Position numbers and translations under genes: made by a program. DNA of 64,000 bases from the sequence record NZ_CP123987.1; one strand, 5' to 3'. The notes beneath the pieces are model-generated. The model was not told where the DNA came from, searched no databases, and was given only the letters and a program-made list of their open reading frames with translations. The DNA is from a plasmid. Of this stretch, positions 52,646 to 64,000 are shown piece by piece; position 1 is the first letter of the stretch; the number at the start of each line of letters is the position of its first letter.

Positions 52646-52799
52646 GATTTGACAACCCCTTTAATAAAAATTAGTTAATTAATTATATCATACTGTCAGT
52701 ATCTATATTGTTAAATGATCGAAAACGCAAACATTATACGTTGAAATATCATAAATAGTTTATAATTACATTAGGTAGCAAAGAAAGGTTGTGGAAACA

Positions 52800-53966
52800 A
52801 TGAATATAATCACCACAAATGAAAATAAGAAGATAGCAGATAAAATTTGGGATAAAAATGATATTAATTGGATACTTAGGAAGAATGGATTTAAAGCAGT
52901 GAAAGATGCAAAATTTGCAGACTGGAAATTAGATAGTATTAAAGTAAATGGACTAGATTTTTATGTATTAGCGCAAGAGGATCTGGCTACATATGCAATT
53001 TTTGATGAAGAAATGGCAAAATTTTCAATTTCAATTGTAGTAGATGCATTAGAGCAGATTGATATTATTCCACAACAACAAATGGTTTTATATGAAAATG
53101 CATTATTTAATGGCAATGTTATGAAGATCAAAACAAGAAAGAATGTTAAGGTGAACTTGTCTGATGATGACCTGGACTTTATTAGTAATTATCTTGATTC
53201 GCGTTTTTATACCCCAGGAATGTCGGAAAATGAAAAAATCGAGTGTTTCCTTGAGATAAGCGGATATTTATCTTTTCGCAACCAAATTGATGAAAATAAG
53301 CTAAATGATTATTATCAAATCAAACTTGGAAAAGCAAATAAAAAATACAGCTATGTTACATTGGAACGTAATTTTAGATACTTTGAAAATTGGGACAAGT
53401 ATGCAGATTTAAGTAAGGATGATGAAAAATACGAAAGAGTGAAGAGTAAACTTATAGAAAATAATAATAAGATGATTGATCAATATTTGAACTTTGTAAA
53501 ATCAGAAAAAAATTTCACAAGCATGCCTCCAATTAGTCAGCAAAAGGAAATATTGGAGGATTACCTAAACAAGTATCTCCTAAAAGACAAAATACAAACA
53601 GTTATAACAAATGCAGCTGAATTATATACTTATAAAATTAGTATTGGCGAAACTGGTATTACAGAGTATATCGCGATTATGACGGAATTATTTAATTTCT
53701 TGCAAAAAACTGGTGCGGTTAAGAAGAATGATGGTAAAAAAGTAAAAGATATACTGGAGGAATTAAGCATTATCACAGGTGATAACGAGGATCATTCAAT
53801 GGAAGATAGTTTACTTGATGCATTAAATGATTTAAGTGATGAAGAGCTAGATCTTTTGGGAGAAGTCATGTCTTCAATAGAAAGACCTGTCGATCCAGAA
53901 GTTATTTCAGATGATAGTCAAAATCTTGAAGTTCCATACATGAGACTTTTAAAAAGAGATGAATAG
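52800..53966 (+). CDS. hypothetical acidic protein
   Basis: ~389 aa; no recognisable motifs; the terminator-like hairpin at 54093-54139 lies ~127 bp downstream, across an unannotated gap. Confidence 0.45.
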   Translation: MNIITTNENKKIADKIWDKNDINWILRKNGFKAVKDAKFADWKLDSIKVNGLDFYVLAQEDLATYAIFDEEMAKFSISIVVDALEQIDIIPQQQMVLYENALFNGNVMKIKTRKNVKVNLSDDDLDFISNYLDSRFYTPGMSENEKIECFLEISGYLSFRNQIDENKLNDYYQIKLGKANKKYSYVTLERNFRYFENWDKYADLSKDDEKYERVKSKLIENNNKMIDQYLNFVKSEKNFTSMPPISQQKEILEDYLNKYLLKDKIQTVITNAAELYTYKISIGETGITEYIAIMTELFNFLQKTGAVKKNDGKKVKDILEELSIITGDNEDHSMEDSLLDALNDLSDEELDLLGEVMSSIERPVDPEVISDDSQNLEVPYMRLLKRDE

Positions 53967-54185: not shown

Positions 54186-55112
54186 CTACAATTCTTTCAA
54201 ATGTTTTAAAATTTTCCGATTATCTTTAGTTTCAAGTTCTTTAATGATATGTAGATATGTTTCTTGAGTAGTCGTAACATTAGCGTGTCCCAATCTTCGT
54301 GATACACTCAAGACTGATACACCTTGGAATAATAGTAGCGATGCATGTGTATGCCTTAGACCATGTATGGAAATTGTAGGAATGTTGGCATGTCGACATA
54401 ATGTTGCTAGTCTGCTGTTGACGGTAGAGTTAAATATTTTTTGATTCTGATTAACGAAAATAGGTTGGTCAGGGTCTTTTTCTTTCGTCAATTTCTTGAA
54501 AGCTTTTAAAGTACTATCATCAACGAAGATTTTCCGATTAGAGCTTTTATTTTTGGTGGGTTGAAAGCCATAATCTTTGAACTTGTAATTCCAAGATTTA
54601 TTAATGTTTATTTGTTGATTTTTATAGTCAAAGTCAGCAGGTGTTAGGGCTAACGCTTCAGCAAATCGCAATCCAGTTTTGCTAATCAAATAGATGAACC
54701 AATCCCAATTTACTTCAGCAGGTAGGTTCAATTCATATAATAAAGCTTGTAATTCATTCATATTCAAGAATTTCTTCTTTTTCTTTCTTTTTTGAATTCC
54801 TTTAATAATAGCTTTTCTTGTAGGGTTAATTCTAATAATTCCATCTTCATATGCATCTACAAGACATGGCTTTAAATGATGATGAAAGTCGAGTGTTGTT
54901 TCACGTTCATGATTTTCAGCAAATTTATTTAAAAGTAATTGATAACTCTTACGATCAAGTTGGTGTAAATGTAAATCAGGGCAAAGTTCTTTAACATGTT
55001 TGTGAGCGAGCTCGTATTTTACTAGAGTCGCATGACGTACTGCATCTTTCTTATATAGCTCAATCCACTCTTTATAGTATTTATGGAACAATTTTGTACT
55101 TTTTCTTGGCAC
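54186..55112 (-). CDS. tyrosine site-specific recombinase (phage-integrase family)
   Basis: C-terminal R…HxxR…Y catalytic-box context (…HGLRHTHASLL…ETYLHI…); adjacent to hsdS. Confidence 0.8.
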   Translation of the reverse strand: MPRKSTKLFHKYYKEWIELYKKDAVRHATLVKYELAHKHVKELCPDLHLHQLDRKSYQLLLNKFAENHERETTLDFHHHLKPCLVDAYEDGIIRINPTRKAIIKGIQKRKKKKKFLNMNELQALLYELNLPAEVNWDWFIYLISKTGLRFAEALALTPADFDYKNQQININKSWNYKFKDYGFQPTKNKSSNRKIFVDDSTLKAFKKLTKEKDPDQPIFVNQNQKIFNSTVNSRLATLCRHANIPTISIHGLRHTHASLLLFQGVSVLSVSRRLGHANVTTTQETYLHIIKELETKDNRKILKHLKEL

Positions 55113-55322
55113 TAGCCATCACCTCTCTAATTATTTAGCTGAATTAAATATATCAGTAATCTATTTTTGATTGAATATTGTGGACCTCCAAAATTATTTT
55201 TAGGTAATATGATGAAATTACCAAAAAAATTGTTGAAATTTTAGAGAAGTGAGATATAATAAAATTGTAATAGGGGTTAATTACAACATTAATATAGATA
55301 GAAATAAGGAGTTGAAAATTTT

Positions 55323-55880
55323 ATGAAGTTAAACGAATTGGTAAAAATCGAAAGTGGAATTAATTCAGTTCGTGTAAAGGATCAAAATTATACGCTATAT
55401 ACCATAGAAGACGTCAATTATGACTTGGGGCATGGTGAGGATTATCAACACGATAAGGCTAGTGGTAAAAGTATTACAGCAAGGGGAGATATTGTGATAA
55501 ATACTGTAAGTAATCTAGCAAGTGTTGTTCATTCTAGAAATGCTGGTAAGATGCTTAATCAAATTTTTCTTCGTTTAAATATCCTTGATGAGAATACATT
55601 AGACCCTTGGTATTTATGCTATCTATTAAATAAGTCCGAATACATTAGGTACCAAGAAGCAGCCATTATGGATGGATCTGTTATTAGAAAGCTAACTAAA
55701 GCTAATCTTGAAGATTTAGAGATTAATCTGCCGGGAGTAGTTGACCAAAAGAAGATGGGGGAAGCTTACAAAGAAATTATGAAAAAGTATACATTAGCTA
55801 TGGAGAAAGCGGAGTTAGAAAAAGATCTGTACTTACAAATGTTAGGGGAAAAAGATTTAAACAACAGAGAGGCGGTTTAA
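55323..55880 (+). CDS. hsdS: type I R-M specificity subunit, half-size (single TRD)
   Basis: 185 aa; one target-recognition domain plus a conserved C-terminal coiled-coil spacer (…LPGVVDQKKMGEAYKEIMKKYTLAMEK…). Confidence 0.7.
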   Translation: MKLNELVKIESGINSVRVKDQNYTLYTIEDVNYDLGHGEDYQHDKASGKSITARGDIVINTVSNLASVVHSRNAGKMLNQIFLRLNILDENTLDPWYLCYLLNKSEYIRYQEAAIMDGSVIRKLTKANLEDLEINLPGVVDQKKMGEAYKEIMKKYTLAMEKAELEKDLYLQMLGEKDLNNREAV

Positions 55881-55881
55881 T

Positions 55882-57273
55882 ATGGATAAGGATTTAGAAG
55901 AAAGATTAGCAGTTAAAGATAGCTATATCACTATTCATGACTTTTATGTGTTAATGGCATTTTATCAATCAATTTCACAAAAAGTTTTACGAAAATTTGA
56001 TAAAGATGGCAGCATTTTAGAAGTACAAAAAAAATATGAAGAAAGTAGGGAGACTGTTCAGGATGCTCAATTCGTAATAGCGCCACAAGATACATATTAT
56101 CATCATTACCAAATGTATAAGGCCAATAAATTTGAATATGTTGAACTCGTAAAATCTCTATATAATATAGAAGAAAAAAATCCAAAATTAAAAAATATCT
56201 TCCAAGATGTTAGCGGAAGTACTTCAAGTTTACCGAGTGAAACTGCTTTTGAAAAGATAGATTCACGTAATGAAGTAAGTTTTGAAGAAAATTTAGAAAT
56301 AATTAAGCGAAGCAGTGGCGCTAGGGATAATTACGATTATACTTCGAAAAATATCCGTAAGTTGATTACTAAATTAGTTGGAAGTAAAAAAGAAGGAGTA
56401 TCAATTTATGATCCAGCTTTGGGAACAGCGAGTTTACTGTTAGGTATAAATCGAGATGCACTTAAAGAAAATAAATATTATGGACAAGAAATCAATACTC
56501 AAGTGATAAAAATAGCCATTATGAACGCAATAGTTAATGATGTAGATGATGATAAATTTGAATTTAAGAATGAAAATACATTGGCTAATAACTGGGAATT
56601 TGGCAAGGTTGATATAGTAGTGTCTGATCCACCTATAAATATGAAATGGAATGTTGATAGAAATTTAAGTCAAGATAGACGTTACCGAGATTATGGTGAG
56701 ATGCCTAACAAAGCTGATTGGGGATTCATTTTAGATGGAATAGATAAATTATCAGACAATGGCATGATGGTTGTGTCAGTTGTTCAAGGTACGCTGTTTA
56801 GAGGAGCCAAAGAATACAATATTAGACGTAAACTTCTAGAAGATGGAAAGATTAGGGCGGTAATCCAGTTGCCAGGGAATACAAAAATTTCAACTACAAT
56901 CGCAACTTGCTTATTAGTGCTTAGAAAATCATCAGAAGATAAAGATGTCTTCTTTATTAATGCAAGCCAAGAGTATGAGAAGAAAGGCTTGGAAAATATT
57001 CTAACAGAAGCCAATGTCGATAAAATTGTAGATATTTTTAATGAAAAGAAAGAAGAAAAAGGATTCTCACATGTAGCGAGCTATGAAGAAATTGAGAAAA
57101 ATGATTTTAACCTATCAGTAGCACGTTATGTAAATCAGTATAAGTTTAAAGAAAAATTAGATTATCAAGAAGAAATAAAAAATCTTGAAAAGTTAGATGA
57201 AAAACTAAGTCAAACTGATGCGACATTGAAGAATTTGATGGGTGATTTAGGTTTGATGGAGATTAATAACTAG
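55882..57273 (+). CDS. hsdM: type I HsdM-like N6-adenine methyltransferase with atypical catalytic motifs
   Basis: HsdM architecture with the C-terminal FNLSVARYV motif. Motif I reads IYDPALGTASLLLG (canonical DPACGSGGFL) and motif IV reads VVSDPPI (canonical NPPF/Y). Confidence 0.7.
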   Translation: MDKDLEERLAVKDSYITIHDFYVLMAFYQSISQKVLRKFDKDGSILEVQKKYEESRETVQDAQFVIAPQDTYYHHYQMYKANKFEYVELVKSLYNIEEKNPKLKNIFQDVSGSTSSLPSETAFEKIDSRNEVSFEENLEIIKRSSGARDNYDYTSKNIRKLITKLVGSKKEGVSIYDPALGTASLLLGINRDALKENKYYGQEINTQVIKIAIMNAIVNDVDDDKFEFKNENTLANNWEFGKVDIVVSDPPINMKWNVDRNLSQDRRYRDYGEMPNKADWGFILDGIDKLSDNGMMVVSVVQGTLFRGAKEYNIRRKLLEDGKIRAVIQLPGNTKISTTIATCLLVLRKSSEDKDVFFINASQEYEKKGLENILTEANVDKIVDIFNEKKEEKGFSHVASYEEIEKNDFNLSVARYVNQYKFKEKLDYQEEIKNLEKLDEKLSQTDATLKNLMGDLGLMEINN

Positions 57274-57291
57274 AAATTAAGGGGGATAAAA

Positions 57292-57534
57292 ATGATTAAA
57301 CTAGAAAAAATGATCAAAAAATTAGAGTTAATACTGGCAGGGGTTATGTTACCCACAATGATAATCTTTGTCGTTCTTGAATTGAATAGGTTAATGACAG
57401 GAACTGAAACAGACTATGGGTATTTGGCAATAACAATGATAATGACACTACTACTAGGAACTTTAGAAGTCCAGTTTTCAATGAAAGAAGAAATTAAAGA
57501 GTTAAAAATGGAACTCAAAAATATTGATAAGTAA
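57292..57534 (+). CDS. small membrane protein
   Basis: 80 aa, 2 TM helices; inside the operon. Confidence 0.4.
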   Translation: MIKLEKMIKKLELILAGVMLPTMIIFVVLELNRLMTGTETDYGYLAITMIMTLLLGTLEVQFSMKEEIKELKMELKNIDK

Positions 57535-57685
57535 AATTTCCAAATTTGCCAATTTAGATATAGGAGAAATTAGAAAATTTGTGCAAATAGTAGATTTCTT
57601 AGATTAAAAACTAAATTTTTGCATAAATTAGAAAATTGGTCCTGTGTCTAGAATGGAAAATTGGAGAAAAAGGAGAAAAAAGAAG

Positions 57686-59650
57686 ATGAAGTTATTTAAT
57701 AAAAGTCATTCTAAAAATAGTGAGTGGTATTTTCCAGGTGGTAAAGACTTACAAATGGAATCTGGATCTAATGCGAGTTTAGAAATGTTTAAGGATAATC
57801 CTTTAGACTCTTTAGCTAGAGAAATATGTCAAAATTCGTTAGATGCTGGGATAGAGGGTAGTAATAAGCCTGTTCGAGTAGAGTTTACAAGTTTCAAGGT
57901 TAAAGCTGAAAATATTCCAGGATATCTGGAGCTAAAATATGAAGTTATAAATAAGGCGATGAAACAATGGCCTAATGAGCAAAAAACAATGTCTATGTTA
58001 AGAAAAATGGACAGGATTTTGAAAAATAAATTTGTTAATGTTTTAAAAATTAGTGATTATAACACTACTGGTTTACGAAAAGAAAATTGGAAATCATTAA
58101 TTGAACAAGTTGGTTCATCTGTAAAGAAAGATTCATCATCAGCCGGATCATTTGGTATTGGTAAAGGGGCACCATTTGCTGTTAGTGATTTACGAATGGT
58201 ACTGTATAGTACTTTGGCTGATGAAGGTATTAAGTCCATTGGTGTAATGAAGTTTGTATCTTATAAAGATAAGCTTAATGGGAAAACTATAATTACCCAA
58301 GGTACAGGATATTATGGGGAAAATGGGAGTAAGAAACCAATTTCAAAAGATTTTGGATTAGGAGGAGAAATATCTAGAACTGAAAAGGGAACAGATATCT
58401 ATATTATTGGTTTTAATCAAGAATTGATGGAGAACTGGACTAAAGAAATAACATATTCTTTAGCAAATAACTTCTTATTTTCTTTCTATACTAATAAATT
58501 AGAAGTAGTTATTGATAATAAATATATGCTTGACTACAGTAAGATGAACAAGATTATTGAGGAAATTCGTAATGATAAGAAATTACTAAGGAAATATGAG
58601 TATTTACCAGGTTATTATGATGTTTTACAAGATGAAGATCATAAAGAATTTAATTTAACTGGATTCAAAGAATATGGTATTAAAGATGGGGAAGCAATAC
58701 TTTATACCTCAAATAAGGGCGATGTAAATCGTAGAGTATTAATGACAAGAAATGCAGGTATGAAGATTAAAGATCTAAATAGAATCAGTTCCATTATTAA
58801 ATTTTCCGGAATATTCTATGCTCATGGAAAAAATATCAACGGAATACTTAAACAACTAGAAAATCCTAATCATAATGATTGATCCAAGGATAGATCTGAA
58901 ACGCCTAAAAAAGCTGGCAGATTCTTAAAAGGTATGAATAGATTTATAAAAGAAACTATCAAAGATACATATACTGAAAAAGTAGCTGATGAAGTTGATG
59001 CATATGGGGTTAGTGATTTCCTCCCAGAGGATATAAATTCGATAAGACTGTCAAATAAAAAAGTCAAAGATAAAGGTCATAAAAAAGTAGCTATTGAGAT
59101 TGAAAAAATAAATACAAAGTCTAAAGTAGCTAGAGTTAGAGAAAATAATCATATTACTGGCGGCGATGATAAAGGTGTTACTAAAGGTGGAGTAGGTCAA
59201 GGAGATAGTTTTGGTACAGCTTATGATGGAAGAGGACATAGAGGTGGATCTAGTACAGGAAATAACTTTGGTTATGGCGATAGACCTGGGGAAAATGGAC
59301 CTAATAACAATGATGATATGTTTATAAAAAATAGAAATAGTCAAAAAAAGATAACCAATGTGAAATACAGATGTATAGAAGTTGATCATCAAAGTGGAAT
59401 GTATAGGCTGATGGTAAAGCCTGATAAGAGTTTAAGCAATGTGCGTATTGATTTAGATGTTATTGGTGATTCAGGTAAAAAAGATACAGTTCAGATAACA
59501 AAGGCGACCTATCGAGGAAAACAATTAAATATAGGATATTCAAATGTATATATCCAATCTTTACTTGCAGGATCTTGGCAGCCTATCATGATAAAACTTA
59601 ATGGAAATACACGGTTGAAATTGGAGGTAGAAATTTATGCGAATATCTGA
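57686..59650 (+). pseudogene. MORC-like GHKL ATPase (HATPase_c_3-type) with an in-frame TGA
   Basis: Bergerat-fold N box LAREICQNSLDAG and G-box SAGSFGIGKGAPFAVSD. TGA at 58880-58882 lies in frame between the 412-aa and 238-aa ORFs, so a single reading frame covers the whole length. Confidence 0.65.
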
Positions 59651-62406
59651 CAGTATTTATCCTTATCCAGTATTATCAGTAGATGATGAAGATTATATTC
59701 AAGATTCAGAATTTGATGTCGAGTTTACTAGTGTTACAGCAACACCATTTAAAAATGCAATTGTAAAATGTAGATTTATTTTACAGTGCGCCCGGCATGG
59801 TCGATAACTAGGTGGTGAAAGTCCGCTGTGGGCCGTAGTAGTAGGAACCACGAGCCAAGGGCAAGGGTGTCCATCGTGAGGTGGAATCTGAAGGAAGCTC
59901 GATGAGCAAACCACTGCACTGATGAACAAAAATCGACTGTAAGGCCAAGGGGAGAGGATAAGGTTGCTGTACAAACTGAAGTCCAATACTACTCGAAACA
60001 AACCTTGGTAAAGTCGGCAGTGACATGGTGGGAAAGTTATCGTCCTTACCCGGGGAGGTCTGGTCTGCAAGTTTCCGACAAGAGGAATACCTATAATTCC
60101 ACAGAAACAAGCGTTTCAGTGATGGAACGTTGAGCAGAGCAGAAGTCAGCAGAGGTCATAGTAGCCTAAATTAGGCGAAGGACTGAACGACAATAACTCA
60201 TAAATTATATTGGAGGTGAAGTTGGTGCGACAATCGCAGAAAACAGAAATACAAGCTGGCCGCTTGTCGAGGATAGATTTGGAAAATCAAAAGTACACAA
60301 GGGTGCGTAGCACCAATTTTGGTGAAAATAAAGGTATGAGTGTCACTATTCAAGACGAAGTCTTAGACCGCAACAACCTAAATAAGGCATACTTGCGTGT
60401 CAAAAGTAACAGAGGAGCAGCTGGCATTGATGAAATGACAGTTGACGAATTATTCCAATACCTTAGAGAAAATAAAGAGGAACTTACCACAAGTTTGCGA
60501 GAAGGAAGTTATAAACCACTTCCAGTTAAACGTGTAGAAATTCCTAAGCTAAATGGGGGAACGAGAAAGTTAGGAATACCGACAGTAATTGACCGTATGG
60601 TCCAACAAGCAGTAGTTCAAGTACTAACACCCATATTTGAAGAAATTTTCTCTGAAAACAGTTTTGGTTTTCGACCAAACAGAGGAGCTCAAGATGCGAT
60701 AGATAAGGTAATTAGTTATTATAATCAAGGATATAAACGAGTAGTAGATTTGGATCTTAAATCCTACTTCGATAATGTTAATCATGATTTAATGATAAAA
60801 TACTTACAGCAATATATAGATGATGAATGGACGTTAAAACTCATACGTAAATTTCTAACAAGTGGAATATTAGACAATGGGTTATTCGTCAAAAGTGAGA
60901 AAGGAACTCCACAAGGAGGGCCTTTATCACCACTATTAGCCAACATCTATCTTAATGAGCTAGATAAGGAATTAACTAAACGTGGACATCGTTTCGTTAG
61001 ATACGCAGATGACTGTAATATCTACGTTAAAAGTCAGCGAGCAGGTGAAAGGGTAATGCGTAGCATTACGAAGTTTCTAGAAAAACAACTAAAAGTTAAG
61101 GTAAACACAGATAAAACACGAGTAGGCAGTCCTATAAAACTGAAATTCTTAGGTTTCTCTTTGGGAGTAGATAATAAAGGAGGATATGCTCGACCATCAA
61201 AAGAATCTCAGAAACGCGTGAGACAAGCACTTAAAATGACAACCAAGCGAAATAGAGGAATTTCTCTGAACGATATGTTCAAAGAAATATACCAGAAAAT
61301 GCGTGGTTGGTTACAGTATTACTCAATAGGGAGAATGACTACTTTTATCAGACGTCTTGACCAATGGCTAAGGTCAAGAATAAGGCAATATATCTGGAAA
61401 CAATGGAAGAAACCTAAAACAAGATTTGTTAACTTGAAGAAGTTAGGGTTGTCACAACAAGATGCATATACATTTGCCATGACTCGTAAGGGTTACTGGC
61501 GAACTGCACATAGTAAGACATTAACGTATACCCTAACTAATAGAAAACTGGAGCAACTAGGACTAATAAATATGTCCAAAGTACTCCAGTCAATACAAAG
61601 TGATTAAATTGTCGAACCGCCGTATACGGATCCGTACGTACGGTGGTGTGAGAGGTCGATAATTGAACTAATCAATTATCTCCTACTCGATTGATCGCAA
61701 TTTAGAAAGATTAATAAGCTTAGGTAAAGCAGGATTGTATTTACGTGTAGAAAATAGTCTCACTGCATATCGTAAACTATACGCATTAGAACCTGGGAAA
61801 TATACGTTTGAATTAGAAATAGATCCTAAATATATGAGAAAAAAAGTAGAGGTAACAGGCTTACTTTTAGCAAAACAAAATATCACAGATTTTATTAGTG
61901 ATACTATCAATACTGACCTATATGGAAAAGATTATGTATTTCCTGATTTAAATACTGGGGACCCATTAGCTGTTGCATTTACTACTAATGTTGTTGTAAA
62001 TGACGAAGATAGTTTTAAAAGTGTATCTTCAATTATGAAGGTAGCTAAATCAAAAAAGGAGTATATGGTAGTAGATCCAGATGGAGAAATCATATACGTA
62101 TATTTGCCAGAAACTTTATATGAACAATATATTAGATACCAATCAGTACCAGATATAGCTTTATCAATAGTAATATTACCGGCACTTATACAGGTTTTAA
62201 GTTATATGGTATTAAACCGAGGTAATGATATTGATGAACAAAAATGGTATATGGTAATTGAGAAGAAAATAAGGAGTTTAGATAAGGATATTAATGATTT
62301 ATTTAACGAAAAAATTTCACCACTAGAGTTAGCACAAATGATCTTAGAAAATCCAGTAGAAAGATCATTCAATGAAATAAAGGGGATTGTTGGAATTGAA
62401 GATTAA
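59637..62406 (+). CDS. hypothetical protein encoded by two exons interrupted by a group II intron (exon 1 59637-59785, exon 2 61692-62406)
   Basis: Exon 1 (50 codons, RBS GGAGGTAG) ends at the GTGCG intron 5' end. The in-frame open region upstream of the 223-aa ORF extends back to ~61681. Joining 59785 to 61692 keeps the frame, giving a ~288-aa product. Confidence 0.5.
59786..61691 (+). mobile_element. group II intron (~1.9 kb) with an ORF in domain IV
   Basis: 5' GTGCGCCCGG…; structured G/C-rich RNA 59786-60200 that contrasts with the AT-rich surroundings; IEP; domain V-like hairpin GAACCGCCGTATACGG…CGTACGTACGGTGG at ~61614-61650; domain VI-like stem and an …AT end at 61691. Confidence 0.75.
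60222..61607 (+). CDS. ltrA: group II intron reverse transcriptase/maturase (no endonuclease domain)
   Basis: RT domains 0-7 including FVRYADDCNIY (YADD) and maturase domain X; a GGAGG RBS before TTG/GTG at 60222/60225. Confidence 0.85.
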   Translation: MVRQSQKTEIQAGRLSRIDLENQKYTRVRSTNFGENKGMSVTIQDEVLDRNNLNKAYLRVKSNRGAAGIDEMTVDELFQYLRENKEELTTSLREGSYKPLPVKRVEIPKLNGGTRKLGIPTVIDRMVQQAVVQVLTPIFEEIFSENSFGFRPNRGAQDAIDKVISYYNQGYKRVVDLDLKSYFDNVNHDLMIKYLQQYIDDEWTLKLIRKFLTSGILDNGLFVKSEKGTPQGGPLSPLLANIYLNELDKELTKRGHRFVRYADDCNIYVKSQRAGERVMRSITKFLEKQLKVKVNTDKTRVGSPIKLKFLGFSLGVDNKGGYARPSKESQKRVRQALKMTTKRNRGISLNDMFKEIYQKMRGWLQYYSIGRMTTFIRRLDQWLRSRIRQYIWKQWKKPKTRFVNLKKLGLSQQDAYTFAMTRKGYWRTAHSKTLTYTLTNRKLEQLGLINMSKVLQSIQSD

Positions 62407-63190
62407 GGCGAAAACTTGCGATGAGAATTTTTTAGAGGAAATAAAACGAAATTTTGATACTAAATACATAGATTTATATCGTAATTTCGATAAGAAGGGT
62501 ATTCAAGAATTATTCGATAATGAGTTAGTGTATGATATAGAACATGAATTTGAATACTTAGAATTGTTTGATCCTAAATCTTTTAGTGATTTATTTACAA
62601 ATAATATAAAAAATACTTATGAGGCGTTGAAATTTTTAACACCTGCCCAAGCATCTAGAGAAGAATTTTGGTTTACTATGATTAATACTGTATATTTAGA
62701 TTATTTATTGGATTATTTAAAAACGGTATCGGATCGTAAAGATTTTGATCAAAAGATTAAAAATAGTATTTTTTATAATAGCTCAATTACTAAGGCACAA
62801 ACAATTCAAAGAATATCTCGATATTGGTGGTTAGGTTATAGGACATATGATGAAAAAAATATTTCAAATCCATATTGGCTGACAGAATATTTCTTTGAAC
62901 GTGATGGTTCCAGTAAAATTATTGCATTCTTTTCTAGTAATTTGACTAACAATAAAGATATTGCATTAGGAATAATTGAAGGTATCAAAAATAGAAATGA
63001 TAAGATAGTAAATAATAGATGGGCATATTTAATTATGAATAAATATTTTAATGCTATGGGTGGCGTTAGAATCATAGATATTATGACTAGGGAAGAAATT
63101 AAAAAAGAAACAATGAAATATATTGATTATATAGTAGAGAACCCAGAACTATTATCATTAGAAGAGAGAAAGGGAATAATAAAGGGTTAG
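62390..63190 (+). CDS. hypothetical protein (operon member, unknown function)
   Basis: ~266 aa; overlaps the upstream gene end; no known motifs recognised; start uncertain. Confidence 0.45.
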   Translation: MELKIKAKTCDENFLEEIKRNFDTKYIDLYRNFDKKGIQELFDNELVYDIEHEFEYLELFDPKSFSDLFTNNIKNTYEALKFLTPAQASREEFWFTMINTVYLDYLLDYLKTVSDRKDFDQKIKNSIFYNSSITKAQTIQRISRYWWLGYRTYDEKNISNPYWLTEYFFERDGSSKIIAFFSSNLTNNKDIALGIIEGIKNRNDKIVNNRWAYLIMNKYFNAMGGVRIIDIMTREEIKKETMKYIDYIVENPELLSLEERKGIIKG

Positions 63191-63245
63191 CAGCATGATA
63201 TAATTTTTATAAAAGACACAAACACTAATCGGAGGAGAAAGCAAG

Positions 63246-64000
63246 CATGGCTATTACGGAGTATGAAGATAAAATAAAGGATATTGTAGAGAATCTAGAC
63301 AAAGAAGAATTTATCTTTGAATTTTTGAGTGTTTATAGCAAAATTGCAAAATCTACAATTACTAAATTACGCAAGGGGACTAATAATTTATCTAAGGTGC
63401 CTGGTGAATACCATTTAAAAAATAAATTATATTTTAAACAAGTTTCAGGAGATACATTACAAGCTTTTACTGACTTGGTTAGTAAAATATCTCAACAAAA
63501 TGTGAATCCAAGATACATTATGGTAACTGATTTTAAAAACTTAATTGCAAGGGACACAAAAACTCAAGAAACAATAGACATTGATTTTAAGAAGTTACCA
63601 AGAAACTTTGAATTTTTTTTAGCTTGGAATGGCATTGAAAAAGCTGATTTCGAAAGAGAAAATCCAGCTGATTTAAAGGCTGCTGAGAGATTTGCAAAGT
63701 TGTATGATACATTGTTAAAAGACAACGAGCGCATATCCAGACATGGACTAAATTTATTTTTAATTCGATTACTCTTTTGTTTATTTGCAGAAGATACAGG
63801 AGTGTTTGAAAAAGATATTTTTACTAATACAATTAAGAGCATGACAAAAGAAGACGGCAGTGATTTAAACTGCCGAATTCAAGAATTATTCGAATTTTTA
63901 GATACTAAAATTAGACCGGAAGATACACCTGCATGGTTGAGAAAATTTCCTTACGTCAACGGGCAGCTATTTACTGAACAACATACAAACGTTGTCTTTT
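63246..64000 (+). CDS. MmeI/PglX-family (Type IIL R-M / BREX methyltransferase-like) protein, N-terminal part (gene continues beyond the window)
   Basis: …LNLFLIRLLFCLFAEDTGVFEK…GSDL…FPYVNGQLF matches the conserved MmeI N-terminal region (…LYLVRLLFCLFAEDTTIFEK…FPYINGKLF); GGAGGAGAAAG RBS. Confidence 0.7.

Follow-up and report, generated by a model that had tools for sequence, protein, structure and literature searches.

We analysed the region from position 54,186 to the end of a 64,000-nucleotide stretch of plasmid record NZ_CP123987.1; the whole of this stretch is called the window below. The region holds PDC-M33, a cassette of three genes (A, B and C) catalogued by PADLOC as a candidate defence system, set between genes for a half-size HsdS, an HsdM-like methyltransferase and a small transmembrane (TM) protein on one side and an MmeI-family gene on the other. 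Our favoured reading, which we hold as likely, is that a repA-type megaplasmid of Ligilactobacillus salivarius carries here a defence hot spot with exchangeable cargo, built of independent modules, and that PDC-M33 is one of these modules, probably inactive here. Overall, this is an ordinary mosaic defence island holding a known candidate system, and not the new integrated hsdS-hsdM-GHKL system suggested by an original prediction made from the sequence alone.

In a search of a plasmid collection, the region matches repA-type megaplasmids of L. salivarius at 88-95% identity. Coverage of the query stays below 80% for every plasmid record there and reaches 79% in the best places, which is what absence of the 1.9-kb intron described below from the sibling plasmids would give. 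The gene map was built from the listing of open reading frames (ORFs) together with Pfam, PADLOC and NCBIfam scans, with Rfam used for RNA. The loci compared are labelled L001-L108, among which the L007 copy serves as the uninterrupted reference, L097 is pBNS11-360kb, L095 is pMP118 and L096 is S35. L108 (P0143) is a heavily fragmented assembly and was uninformative.

A PDC-M33 cassette with a split gene A and an intron in gene B

The cassette and the elements that interrupt it lie as follows.

57686..59650, plus strand: PDC-M33A, a MORC/MutL-like GHKL plus S5 ATPase with a Gly-rich disordered linker and a C-terminal beta-sandwich; a pseudogene or split gene here
58880..58882, plus strand: in-frame TGA in place of the Trp399 codon (TGG to TGA); five sibling loci carry TGG
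59637..59785, plus strand: PDC-M33B exon 1 (exon junction against the L007 gene)
59786..61691, plus strand: group II intron of 1,906 nt, 5' end GTGCG, domains V/VI ending at 61691 (Rfam RF02001 137 bits, RF01998 71 bits, RF00029 49 bits)
60210..61607, plus strand: intron-encoded reverse transcriptase/maturase, maximal ORF 465 aa (RVT_1 1.4e-42, GIIM 1.2e-15)
61692..62406, plus strand: PDC-M33B exon 2 (spliced product)
62387..63190, plus strand: PDC-M33C, a DUF6339 protein (DUF6339 4.7e-44; PDC-M33C 5.6e-49)

The A, B and C models of PADLOC are all matched, and the genes follow one another in that order on the same strand, with overlaps of 14 nt between A and B and 20 nt between B and C; not all of the genes are intact. 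Two ORFs of 412 and 238 aa share one frame and together make up a single 654-aa gene A cut by one TGA. They match positions 3-377 and 397-625 of the same 627-position PDC-M33A model, with E-values of 5.6e-118 and, for the C-terminal half, 7.4e-28. The closest database protein is an intact 654-aa protein of L. salivarius with 98% identity, and the gene differs from its sibling by the stop and 13 conservative differences, being otherwise intact. The lost Trp399 lies inside the block ENPxHxxWSxxR; it is near-invariant in an alignment of 101 sequences and invariant in a 45-sequence subset. Fragments apart, there are no natural split versions of A among the 120 homologues listed. A truncated A in this strain would lack the W399/R403 block, a long helix, the linker and the C-terminal domain, and no obvious ribosome-binding site with proper spacing was seen for the downstream ATG at 58934.

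In protein A, the Bergerat motifs E46xxxN50xxD53, D124xxT127xG129 and G154xxG157xG159K160 are invariant in the 101 sequences, as is E392xxxH396 (the ENPxH of the block above) directly after the transducer; A combines a GHKL fold with an S5-type transducer. In the AlphaFold model (mean pLDDT 80.5) a confident N-terminal module spanning residues 10-430 is followed by the linker and then by the C-terminal beta-sandwich. The linker is Gly/Asn/Asp-rich, disordered and about 100 residues long (P0001 residues 434-549, window about 58985-59330), a character that is conserved across the family. Pfam gave no match for the window protein and found HATPase_c_3 in only one of 45 homologues (E 0.07), and the sole NCBIfam match is a weak one to the sacsin ATP-binding domain. 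The predicted GHKL/MORC-like ATPase is therefore borne out by fold and invariant motifs, but A is no member of the MORC family by profile. It likely fits the paraMORC2 group, compared here by its published description rather than by the authors' sequences, which is defined as GHKL plus S5 with a conserved ExxxH at the C-terminal part of S5, occurs mainly in Gram-positives and cyanobacteria, and is associated with DNA methylases (Dcm) and Vsr endonucleases, with SF-II helicases and nucleases also stressed (Iyer, Abhiman & Aravind 2008, PMC2292703).

Gene B is interrupted by a group II intron, recognised as such by its RNA domains I-VI, the 5' GUGCG, a reverse transcriptase/maturase ORF in domain IV and the precise restoration of the exons. 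Joining 59785 to 61692 gives the uninterrupted L007 allele base for base and a product of 287 aa. No endonuclease domain was detected by Pfam in the intron ORF. The intron is present as a single copy in the window, and other L. salivarius megaplasmids carry full-length copies, 92.5% identical, in different places; at this site in PDC-M33B it occurs in none of the plasmid records listed, the best of which cover 79% of the query. Judged from the sequence, PDC-M33 is probably inactive or decaying in this strain, with A cut at codon 399 of 654 and B dependent on splicing.

The products of B and C are less distinctive. B matches its PADLOC model with an E-value of 3.5e-41 and is modelled as an Fn3/Ig-like beta-sandwich followed by a helical tail (pLDDT 85.7); Pfam scans of 52 B homologues revealed nothing recurrent. 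We considered B as a possible missing nuclease and ruled it out, as its model contains Fn3-like sandwiches and helices only. All 51 of the C homologues scanned match DUF6339 and have no other family in common. Profile searches with A, B and C against all PDB sequences returned no match. In the literature searched, 'PDC-M33' and 'DUF6339' were not mentioned in the main texts.

Independence of the cassette and exchange of cargo behind a conserved frame

For the wider distribution of the cassette, 416 matching stretches for A were confirmed in 185,579 species genomes, and 80 loci were taken from one-genome-per-species contigs. Together with loci fetched earlier these were de-replicated to 83, which were scored by tblastn for each gene of the array and by unbiased ORF clustering. 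In 79-82 of these 83 non-redundant loci the genes A, B and C are direct neighbours with a constant order and strand, and contig ends account for the exceptions. The hosts include Bacilli, Clostridia, Negativicutes and others. HsdS, HsdM, the TM protein, MmeI, a helicase and a GIY-YIG nuclease (the last two lie beyond the window in sibling plasmids) were found near A-B-C only in L. salivarius-type loci among the 83. Even in L. agilis, where A is 73% identical, none of the six lies within 10 kb. In L. delbrueckii an unrelated half-S/short-M pair stands beside A-B-C; it is about 31% identical and sits on the opposite side of the cassette.

At least one defence-type neighbour was present in 43 of the 55 loci that have 5 kb or more on both sides. 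The kinds include a Dcm-type methylase with a MutH-like endonuclease and Vsr, a Type IV methyl-directed enzyme, GmrSD, an AAA_5 (McrB-type) ATPase with a partner gene, UvrD/GajB-like helicases and other PDC candidates. An HsdM-like gene lies within 10 kb in 5 of the 55, and a Dcm-like or HsdM-like cluster in 25. These counts favour a function in defence and speak against a methyltransferase as an obligatory partner. The prediction that the region is a defence locus is supported. The further expectation that paraMORCs operate with components of restriction-modification (R-M) systems does exist in print (PMC2292703), but 30 of the 55 loci have neither a Dcm-like nor an HsdM-like cluster nearby.

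In about 17 species PDC-M33A is immediately preceded on its own strand by a soluble ORF of 73-88 aa (for example L011 9732-9965, L050 9739-9975 and L077 9750-9983). Its consensus reads ...EKFxRLAExRTNxxIxxIxLIGNLSN...YxY...; it is absent in L. salivarius and has no PADLOC match. It may be a fourth, optional PDC-M33 component or a regulator.

Upstream of the cassette lies a frame that is shared with sibling plasmids.

54186..55112, minus strand: tyrosine recombinase, 308 aa, phage-integrase type (Phage_integrase 1.3e-23)
55323..55880, plus strand: half-size HsdS, 185 aa, one target-recognition domain (Methylase_S 1.1e-5; PADLOC Specificity_I 1.4e-14)
55882..57273, plus strand: HsdM-like N6-adenine methyltransferase, 463 aa (N6_Mtase 8.9e-70)
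57292..57534, plus strand: 80-aa protein with two predicted membrane helices (hydropathy; no family match)
57535..57685, plus strand: conserved leader after the TM gene (comparison of the window, S35 and pMP118)

The same frame carries other cargo elsewhere in the species. In pMP118 of strain UCC118 the recombinase, S, M and small protein genes are followed by a Type III system (three split mod genes and res, REase_III 1.5e-207), and A-B-C is absent. S35 and eight sibling plasmids also lack A-B-C; there the recombinase, S, M and TM genes run directly into MmeI, helicase and GIY-YIG genes. The cargo diverges directly after the leader sequence ...AAAAAGGAGAAA, with the ATG of gene A 9 nt further downstream, and past the stop of C the S35 sequence resumes at AGCATGATATAATTTT, a sequence directly upstream of MmeI that reads as an extended -10 promoter element. 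The leader on one side and this promoter-like sequence on the other mark the exact boundaries of the cassette. Counting the intron, A-B-C forms an insert of 5.6 kb in an operon of R-M type and, since the frame occurs with other cargo in pMP118 and S35, an embedded and separable module. This is the same situation from which the PADLOC candidates were derived: PDC candidates are cassettes embedded in BREX, DISARM and Type I loci, listed as 145 untested candidates (Payne et al. 2024 bioRxiv 10.1101/2024.01.29.577857). In the supplementary table of that work PDC-M33 is CAS_00129, a cassette of three families; the number 98 given with it we read as its occurrences.

Of the original prediction, the recombinase, half-size HsdS, HsdM-like methyltransferase, small TM protein and MmeI-family gene were all confirmed by domain scans and hydropathy. 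The seven tightly coupled genes were not: two of the ORFs are one split gene A, the intron had been overlooked, and tight coupling is limited to S/M, A/B and B/C, since the leader keeps the TM gene and A 151 nt apart and a gap of 56 nt follows C before MmeI begins. Nor do the genes form one functional unit, as only A-B-C is conserved outside the species and the frame carries other cargo in pMP118 and S35. Conservation of the neighbourhood had been set beforehand as one point on which the idea could fail, and it came out against it: the seven-gene array was found in no genome outside the species, and within the species its modules assort independently. That this is not a described system holds only in part, because A-B-C is the catalogued PDC-M33 and its ATPase fits the paraMORC2 of 2008, although the cassette is a candidate only.

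The S-M pair itself departs from a classical Type I enzyme. HsdS and HsdM lie 1 nt apart. The 185 aa of HsdS cover one half of models about 390-460 positions long, so that the two target-recognition domains of classical Type I are not present. N6_Mtase at residues 153-424 is the sole domain detected by Pfam in the HsdM-like protein, HsdM_N being absent, and the TIGR00497 hsdM score of 194.8 lies under the cut-off of 242.75. Motif I is DPALGTAS, and in the alignment motif IV is DPPI, against (N/I/V/F)P(P)F in relatives. DPPI is without the aromatic residue of the relatives, and both motifs are conserved in the L. salivarius copies of BNS11 and pMP118. Close relatives of the protein were found in L. 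salivarius only. From these motifs the enzyme may be weakly active or inactive. We read the S-M pair as a stand-alone Type I-like methyltransferase of uncertain activity, in which half-size HsdS and short HsdM presumably form an M2S2 enzyme, and not as a Type I system with MORC in the place of HsdR.

A paralogous pair of half-HsdS and short HsdM (M 52% identical) occurs in L. salivarius at L105 9433-19672 and L014 14112-22127. On a plasmid of the same kind as the present one, it stands directly upstream of a classical phase-variable Type I locus with HsdM, HsdS, inverted HsdS, integrase, HsdS and HsdR. L. delbrueckii shares this layout of S/M pair and Type I locus, a recurrent accessory S/M module. 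Our search for L. salivarius methylome literature gave nothing useful.

The small TM protein reaches a maximum Kyte-Doolittle hydropathy of 2.49, read on the 96%-identical L007 copy, and has no family match in Pfam, PADLOC or NCBIfam. It goes with S-M and not with A-B-C: tblastn matches it in L. salivarius-type loci only, and it is present in pMP118 and S35, both without A-B-C. As a fourth PDC-M33 component it was rejected, being L. salivarius-specific; elsewhere an unrelated soluble 77-aa ORF (about 17 loci) or nothing lies upstream of A.

The recombinase has 46-58% amino acid identity to integrases of Listeria and Enterococcus phages and 22% to a Type I shufflon recombinase, and is kept at this site in the L. 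salivarius megaplasmids pMP118, S35 and BNS11. It is a candidate for recombination of the island and its cargo, or for the MmeI inversion described below. The suggested switching of hsdS by this recombinase found no support; the inversion that was found lies in the MmeI gene. A repeat search around the recombinase, hsdS and hsdM gave nothing beyond short, imperfect, AT-rich repeats, and there is no second hsdS. We ruled out an hsdS shufflon on the single hsdS, the lack of credible inverted repeats and the 22% identity.

Several smaller variations affect the frame and its flank. Within the leader (window 57560-57640), a segment of about 58 bp between direct repeats ATTAGAAAATT is missing from S35 (L096 13540-13580), a loss that looks like a repeat-mediated deletion. 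In pBNS11-360kb (L097 12003-14704) a TnpB (IS605-family) element separates a shortened, 252-aa recombinase from hsdS. The three mod genes of pMP118 (L095 15714-24302) are in tandem, each annotated as two pieces of about 180 aa and 470-500 aa, with res following; this could be another variable or phase-variable arrangement. Upstream of the recombinase, a 391-aa acidic ORF (window 52791-53966) has no family match, and its place is taken by a 69-aa gene in sibling plasmids and by hypothetical genes of 42 and 281 aa in pMP118. These differing genes mean that this flank is variable too.

An inverton inside the MmeI-type gene

The cassette is followed by the last gene of the window, which contains an invertible segment.

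63247..64000, plus strand: MmeI-family Type IIG/IIL restriction-methylation enzyme, N-terminal 251 codons (MmeI_N 9.5e-24, MmeI_hel 9.8e-26, REase_MTase_IIG 2.9e-57)
63717..64000, no strand assigned: intragenic inverton of 284 bp with perfect 11-bp inverted repeats AAAAGACAACG at 63717-63727 and 63990-64000 (11-mer count, sibling alignment)

The window copy ends at codon 251. The full-length sibling in pBNS11 (L097) has 883 aa and matches model positions 22-911 of 912 with E=0 and all domains, including the methyltransferase, target-recognition and C-terminal domains. Beyond the window, sibling plasmids carry the rest of MmeI, a DEAD/DEAH helicase (652 aa), a GIY-YIG/T5orf172 nuclease (400 aa) and large unannotated proteins. 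PADLOC matches of the helicase and the GIY-YIG protein are weak only (for the helicase, weak PbeA/Cas3 and no REase_I match). An hsdR just outside the window was also looked for: none lies within 12 kb downstream in the siblings, where MmeI, the DEAD helicase and the GIY-YIG gene are found instead. In the MmeI family, MmeI_N is described as the endonuclease domain. The predicted absence of HsdR therefore stands, but that of any nuclease does not, given this N-terminal domain and a GIY-YIG gene just past the window in siblings.

The 11-mer AAAAGACAACG occurs twice in the 64-kb window, against 0.05 expected, and S35 carries the final 284 bp of the window turned around, with 99% identity. The segment encodes the MmeI_hel spacer domain. 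Orientations were compared across about 20 independent assemblies. The ORF is continuous (ON) in the window, L004, L005, L007, L008, L015 and L103, and the segment is inverted in L001, L002, L003, L006, L096, L098-L102 and L104. In the inverted state the MmeI ORF stops 12 codons past the left repeat, leaving a 167-aa nuclease fragment and a 641-aa ORF with the methyltransferase and target-recognition domains, and this stop accounts for the MmeI genes that are annotated in many strains as split into "167 aa + 641 aa". With 93-99% identity in the flanking sequence otherwise, the inversions look recent and site-specific, as in an intragenic inverton. The MmeI reading frame would thus be switched by the 284-bp segment, with the window copy in the ON state. 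The neighbouring tyrosine recombinase is the obvious candidate invertase.

Inversion of the segment creates an ATG at which the 641-aa ORF starts, with no recognisable Shine-Dalgarno sequence; that a methyltransferase-only product is made in the OFF state is a weak hypothesis. L004 and L005 carry a 2-nt deletion (CAAAGAAG to AAGAAG, at about 14425) directly past the right inverton repeat, and in L005 the left repeat is also preceded by an additional T, so that MmeI is frameshifted in these loci even in the ON orientation. We came across no account of an inverton within an MmeI-type gene in the literature searched; intragenic invertons are a known class (Chanin et al., PMC10028968). The MmeI inverton offers an easily tested case of phase variation inside a restriction-methylation fusion gene.

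Possible role of the cassette and comparison with known systems

By analogy with MORC, MutL and the paraMORC predictions, A would dimerise on ATP binding and clamp or loop DNA, and B and C would be its obligate partners, sensing or executing the response. Because the trio travels alone in about 80 species, PDC-M33 would act alone, without a neighbouring methyltransferase. That A in this way restricts incoming DNA together with B and C is a tentative proposal that we think possible but less likely than not. A far-reaching version of it, which we regard as distinctly improbable, is that PDC-M33 provides nuclease-free immunity, in which a paraMORC2-type ATPase with B and C would topologically clamp and silence or compact invading DNA while embedded in, and perhaps cooperating with, an R-M operon with an inverton-toggled MmeI. 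If it were true, PDC-M33 would be a prokaryotic counterpart of eukaryotic MORC-mediated silencing.

Several points weigh against parts of this account. Neither A and B (models and scans) nor C (sequence scans) show a recognisable nuclease or any other effector domain; with the generic beta-sandwich fold of B, this leaves the clamping and defence mechanism resting on analogy. PDC-M33 is among the experimentally untested candidates of Payne et al. Some functional link of A-B-C to half-S/short-M methyltransferases is possible, given the pair in L. delbrueckii. As to inactivity in this strain, the TGA could be a sequencing error or partly read through, and B may still be made, since group II introns splice. 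The two inverton orientations were seen between strains and not within one culture, and the recombinase is closer to phage integrases than to known invertases.

Among other explanations, it is unlikely, though worth weighing, that the host frame of S-M-TM with MmeI, the helicase, GIY-YIG and perhaps the large downstream proteins is itself a BREX/DISARM-like or Type ISP-like system in which A-B-C is merely embedded. The exact S-M-TM-MmeI-helicase-GIY-YIG set in S35 and its eight siblings, the joint presence of MmeI, helicase and GIY-YIG in all strains seen, and the habit of embedded cassettes to lie inside multi-gene systems would all fit this. However, pMP118 has Type III genes after S-M-TM, which unties S-M-TM from MmeI; AGCATGATATAATTTT, reading as an extended -10, stands directly upstream of MmeI; PADLOC gives no BREX or DISARM core genes, with the MmeI Type IIG score (E=0) far above PglX or DrmMI; and the helicase and GIY-YIG matches are weak. 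We think it quite unlikely that PDC-M33 is fully functional here, with the TGA an error, read through, or flanked by halves of A that work separately, and with an intron that splices efficiently. The otherwise intact A with a single stop and 13 conservative differences, the intron with all RNA domains recognised by Rfam and an intact reverse transcriptase/maturase ORF, and the precise exon junction speak for it, but the stop replaces a tryptophan that is near-invariant or invariant, no natural split A is known among the 120 homologues listed, fragments apart, and the ATG at 58934 lacks an obvious well-spaced ribosome-binding site.

It is very unlikely that A-B-C is no immune system at all and has, for example, a DNA-maintenance or mobile-element function, hitch-hiking in variable islands. 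An untested candidate without a nuclease or other effector domain, with no recognised defence neighbour in 12 of the 55 loci, leaves room for this idea; it sits poorly with defence neighbours of many unrelated kinds in the other 43, with a sporadic and laterally mobile-looking spread (416 stretches in 185,579 species genomes), with presence and absence varying between strains, and with the validation of GHKL modules in defence, as in VcSduA. A single integrated system, in which HsdM and MmeI methylation marks self and the MORC-like ATPase replaces HsdR as motor or effector alongside HsdS, the TM protein and the partners of the ATPase, appears highly improbable. Its genes do share a strand and are closely spaced, the complete array is met again in many L. 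salivarius megaplasmids, L. delbrueckii too has half-S/short-M beside A-B-C, and Iyer et al. predicted that paraMORCs work with R-M components. Yet 50 of the 55 loci have no HsdM-like gene within 10 kb of A-B-C, 30 have no methyltransferase cluster of either the Dcm-like or the HsdM-like type, L. agilis has no other array genes nearby, the S-M-TM frame is found with other cargo and without A-B-C, and in L. delbrueckii the S/M pair shares only about 31% identity and flanks the cassette on the opposite side. We therefore keep to the mosaic island with PDC-M33 as an independent module.

The role of prokaryotic MORC-like ATPases is a question that has stood since the prediction of 2008. To this the locus contributes a cassette that is autonomous and has B and a DUF6339 protein as partners rather than neighbouring methyltransferases, with no known nuclease fold visible in A or B. 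The A-B-C copy of the window, with a stop in A and an intron in B, is a poor experimental subject; intact, near-identical alleles on sequenced L. salivarius megaplasmids, such as that of pBNS11-360kb at NZ_CP089851.1 331226-334824, are directly clonable.

BREX and DISARM were rejected as identities for the locus: PglZ, BrxC and DrmA/B/C are absent by PADLOC in the window and in 12 kb downstream in siblings, and the PglX/DrmMI scores of MmeI lie far under its Type IIG score. MADS was likewise rejected, as there are weak mad2/mad5 matches only, ranking under generic Type I models, and no other mad genes. With Type I R-M, the S-M pair shares the gamma-class N6-adenine methyltransferase domain and a translationally adjacent S, here with a single target-recognition domain; it differs in having no HsdR and no HsdM_N, in scoring under the hsdM cut-off and in its motif IV DPPI. 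We take it to resemble the AhdI-type 'Type I-like' methyltransferases. The MmeI-family Type IIG/IIL enzymes share MmeI_N and MmeI_hel with the window, and the sibling protein matches them over its full length. The known intragenic invertons (PMC10028968) have in common with the MmeI segment a short coding stretch flanked by inverted repeats and found in both orientations.

The ATPase can be set beside several relatives. Identity of A to eukaryotic MORC/SMCHD1 and bacterial MutL is 11-14%, with no HATPase_c_3 match, and A has a Gly-rich linker and a C-terminal beta-sandwich in place of CW, coiled-coil and endonuclease domains. VcSduA (GHKL-Shedu) is an anti-phage protein in which a GHKL ATPase is fused to a PD-(D/E)xK nuclease; GHKL as a regulatory or motor module is common to both, whereas PDC-M33 has no recognisable nuclease. 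With paraMORC2, A shares the GHKL domain followed by the S5 transducer, the ExxxH (E392/H396 here), a mainly Gram-positive spread and frequent Dcm/Vsr neighbours; the published account stresses association with SF-II helicases and nucleases, in contrast to the invariant partners B and DUF6339 protein here. The closest counterpart is PDC-M33 as defined by PADLOC, with the same three models, the same order and adjacency and the same embedding in an operon of R-M type, from which the present copy differs by the nonsense codon in A and the group II intron in B.

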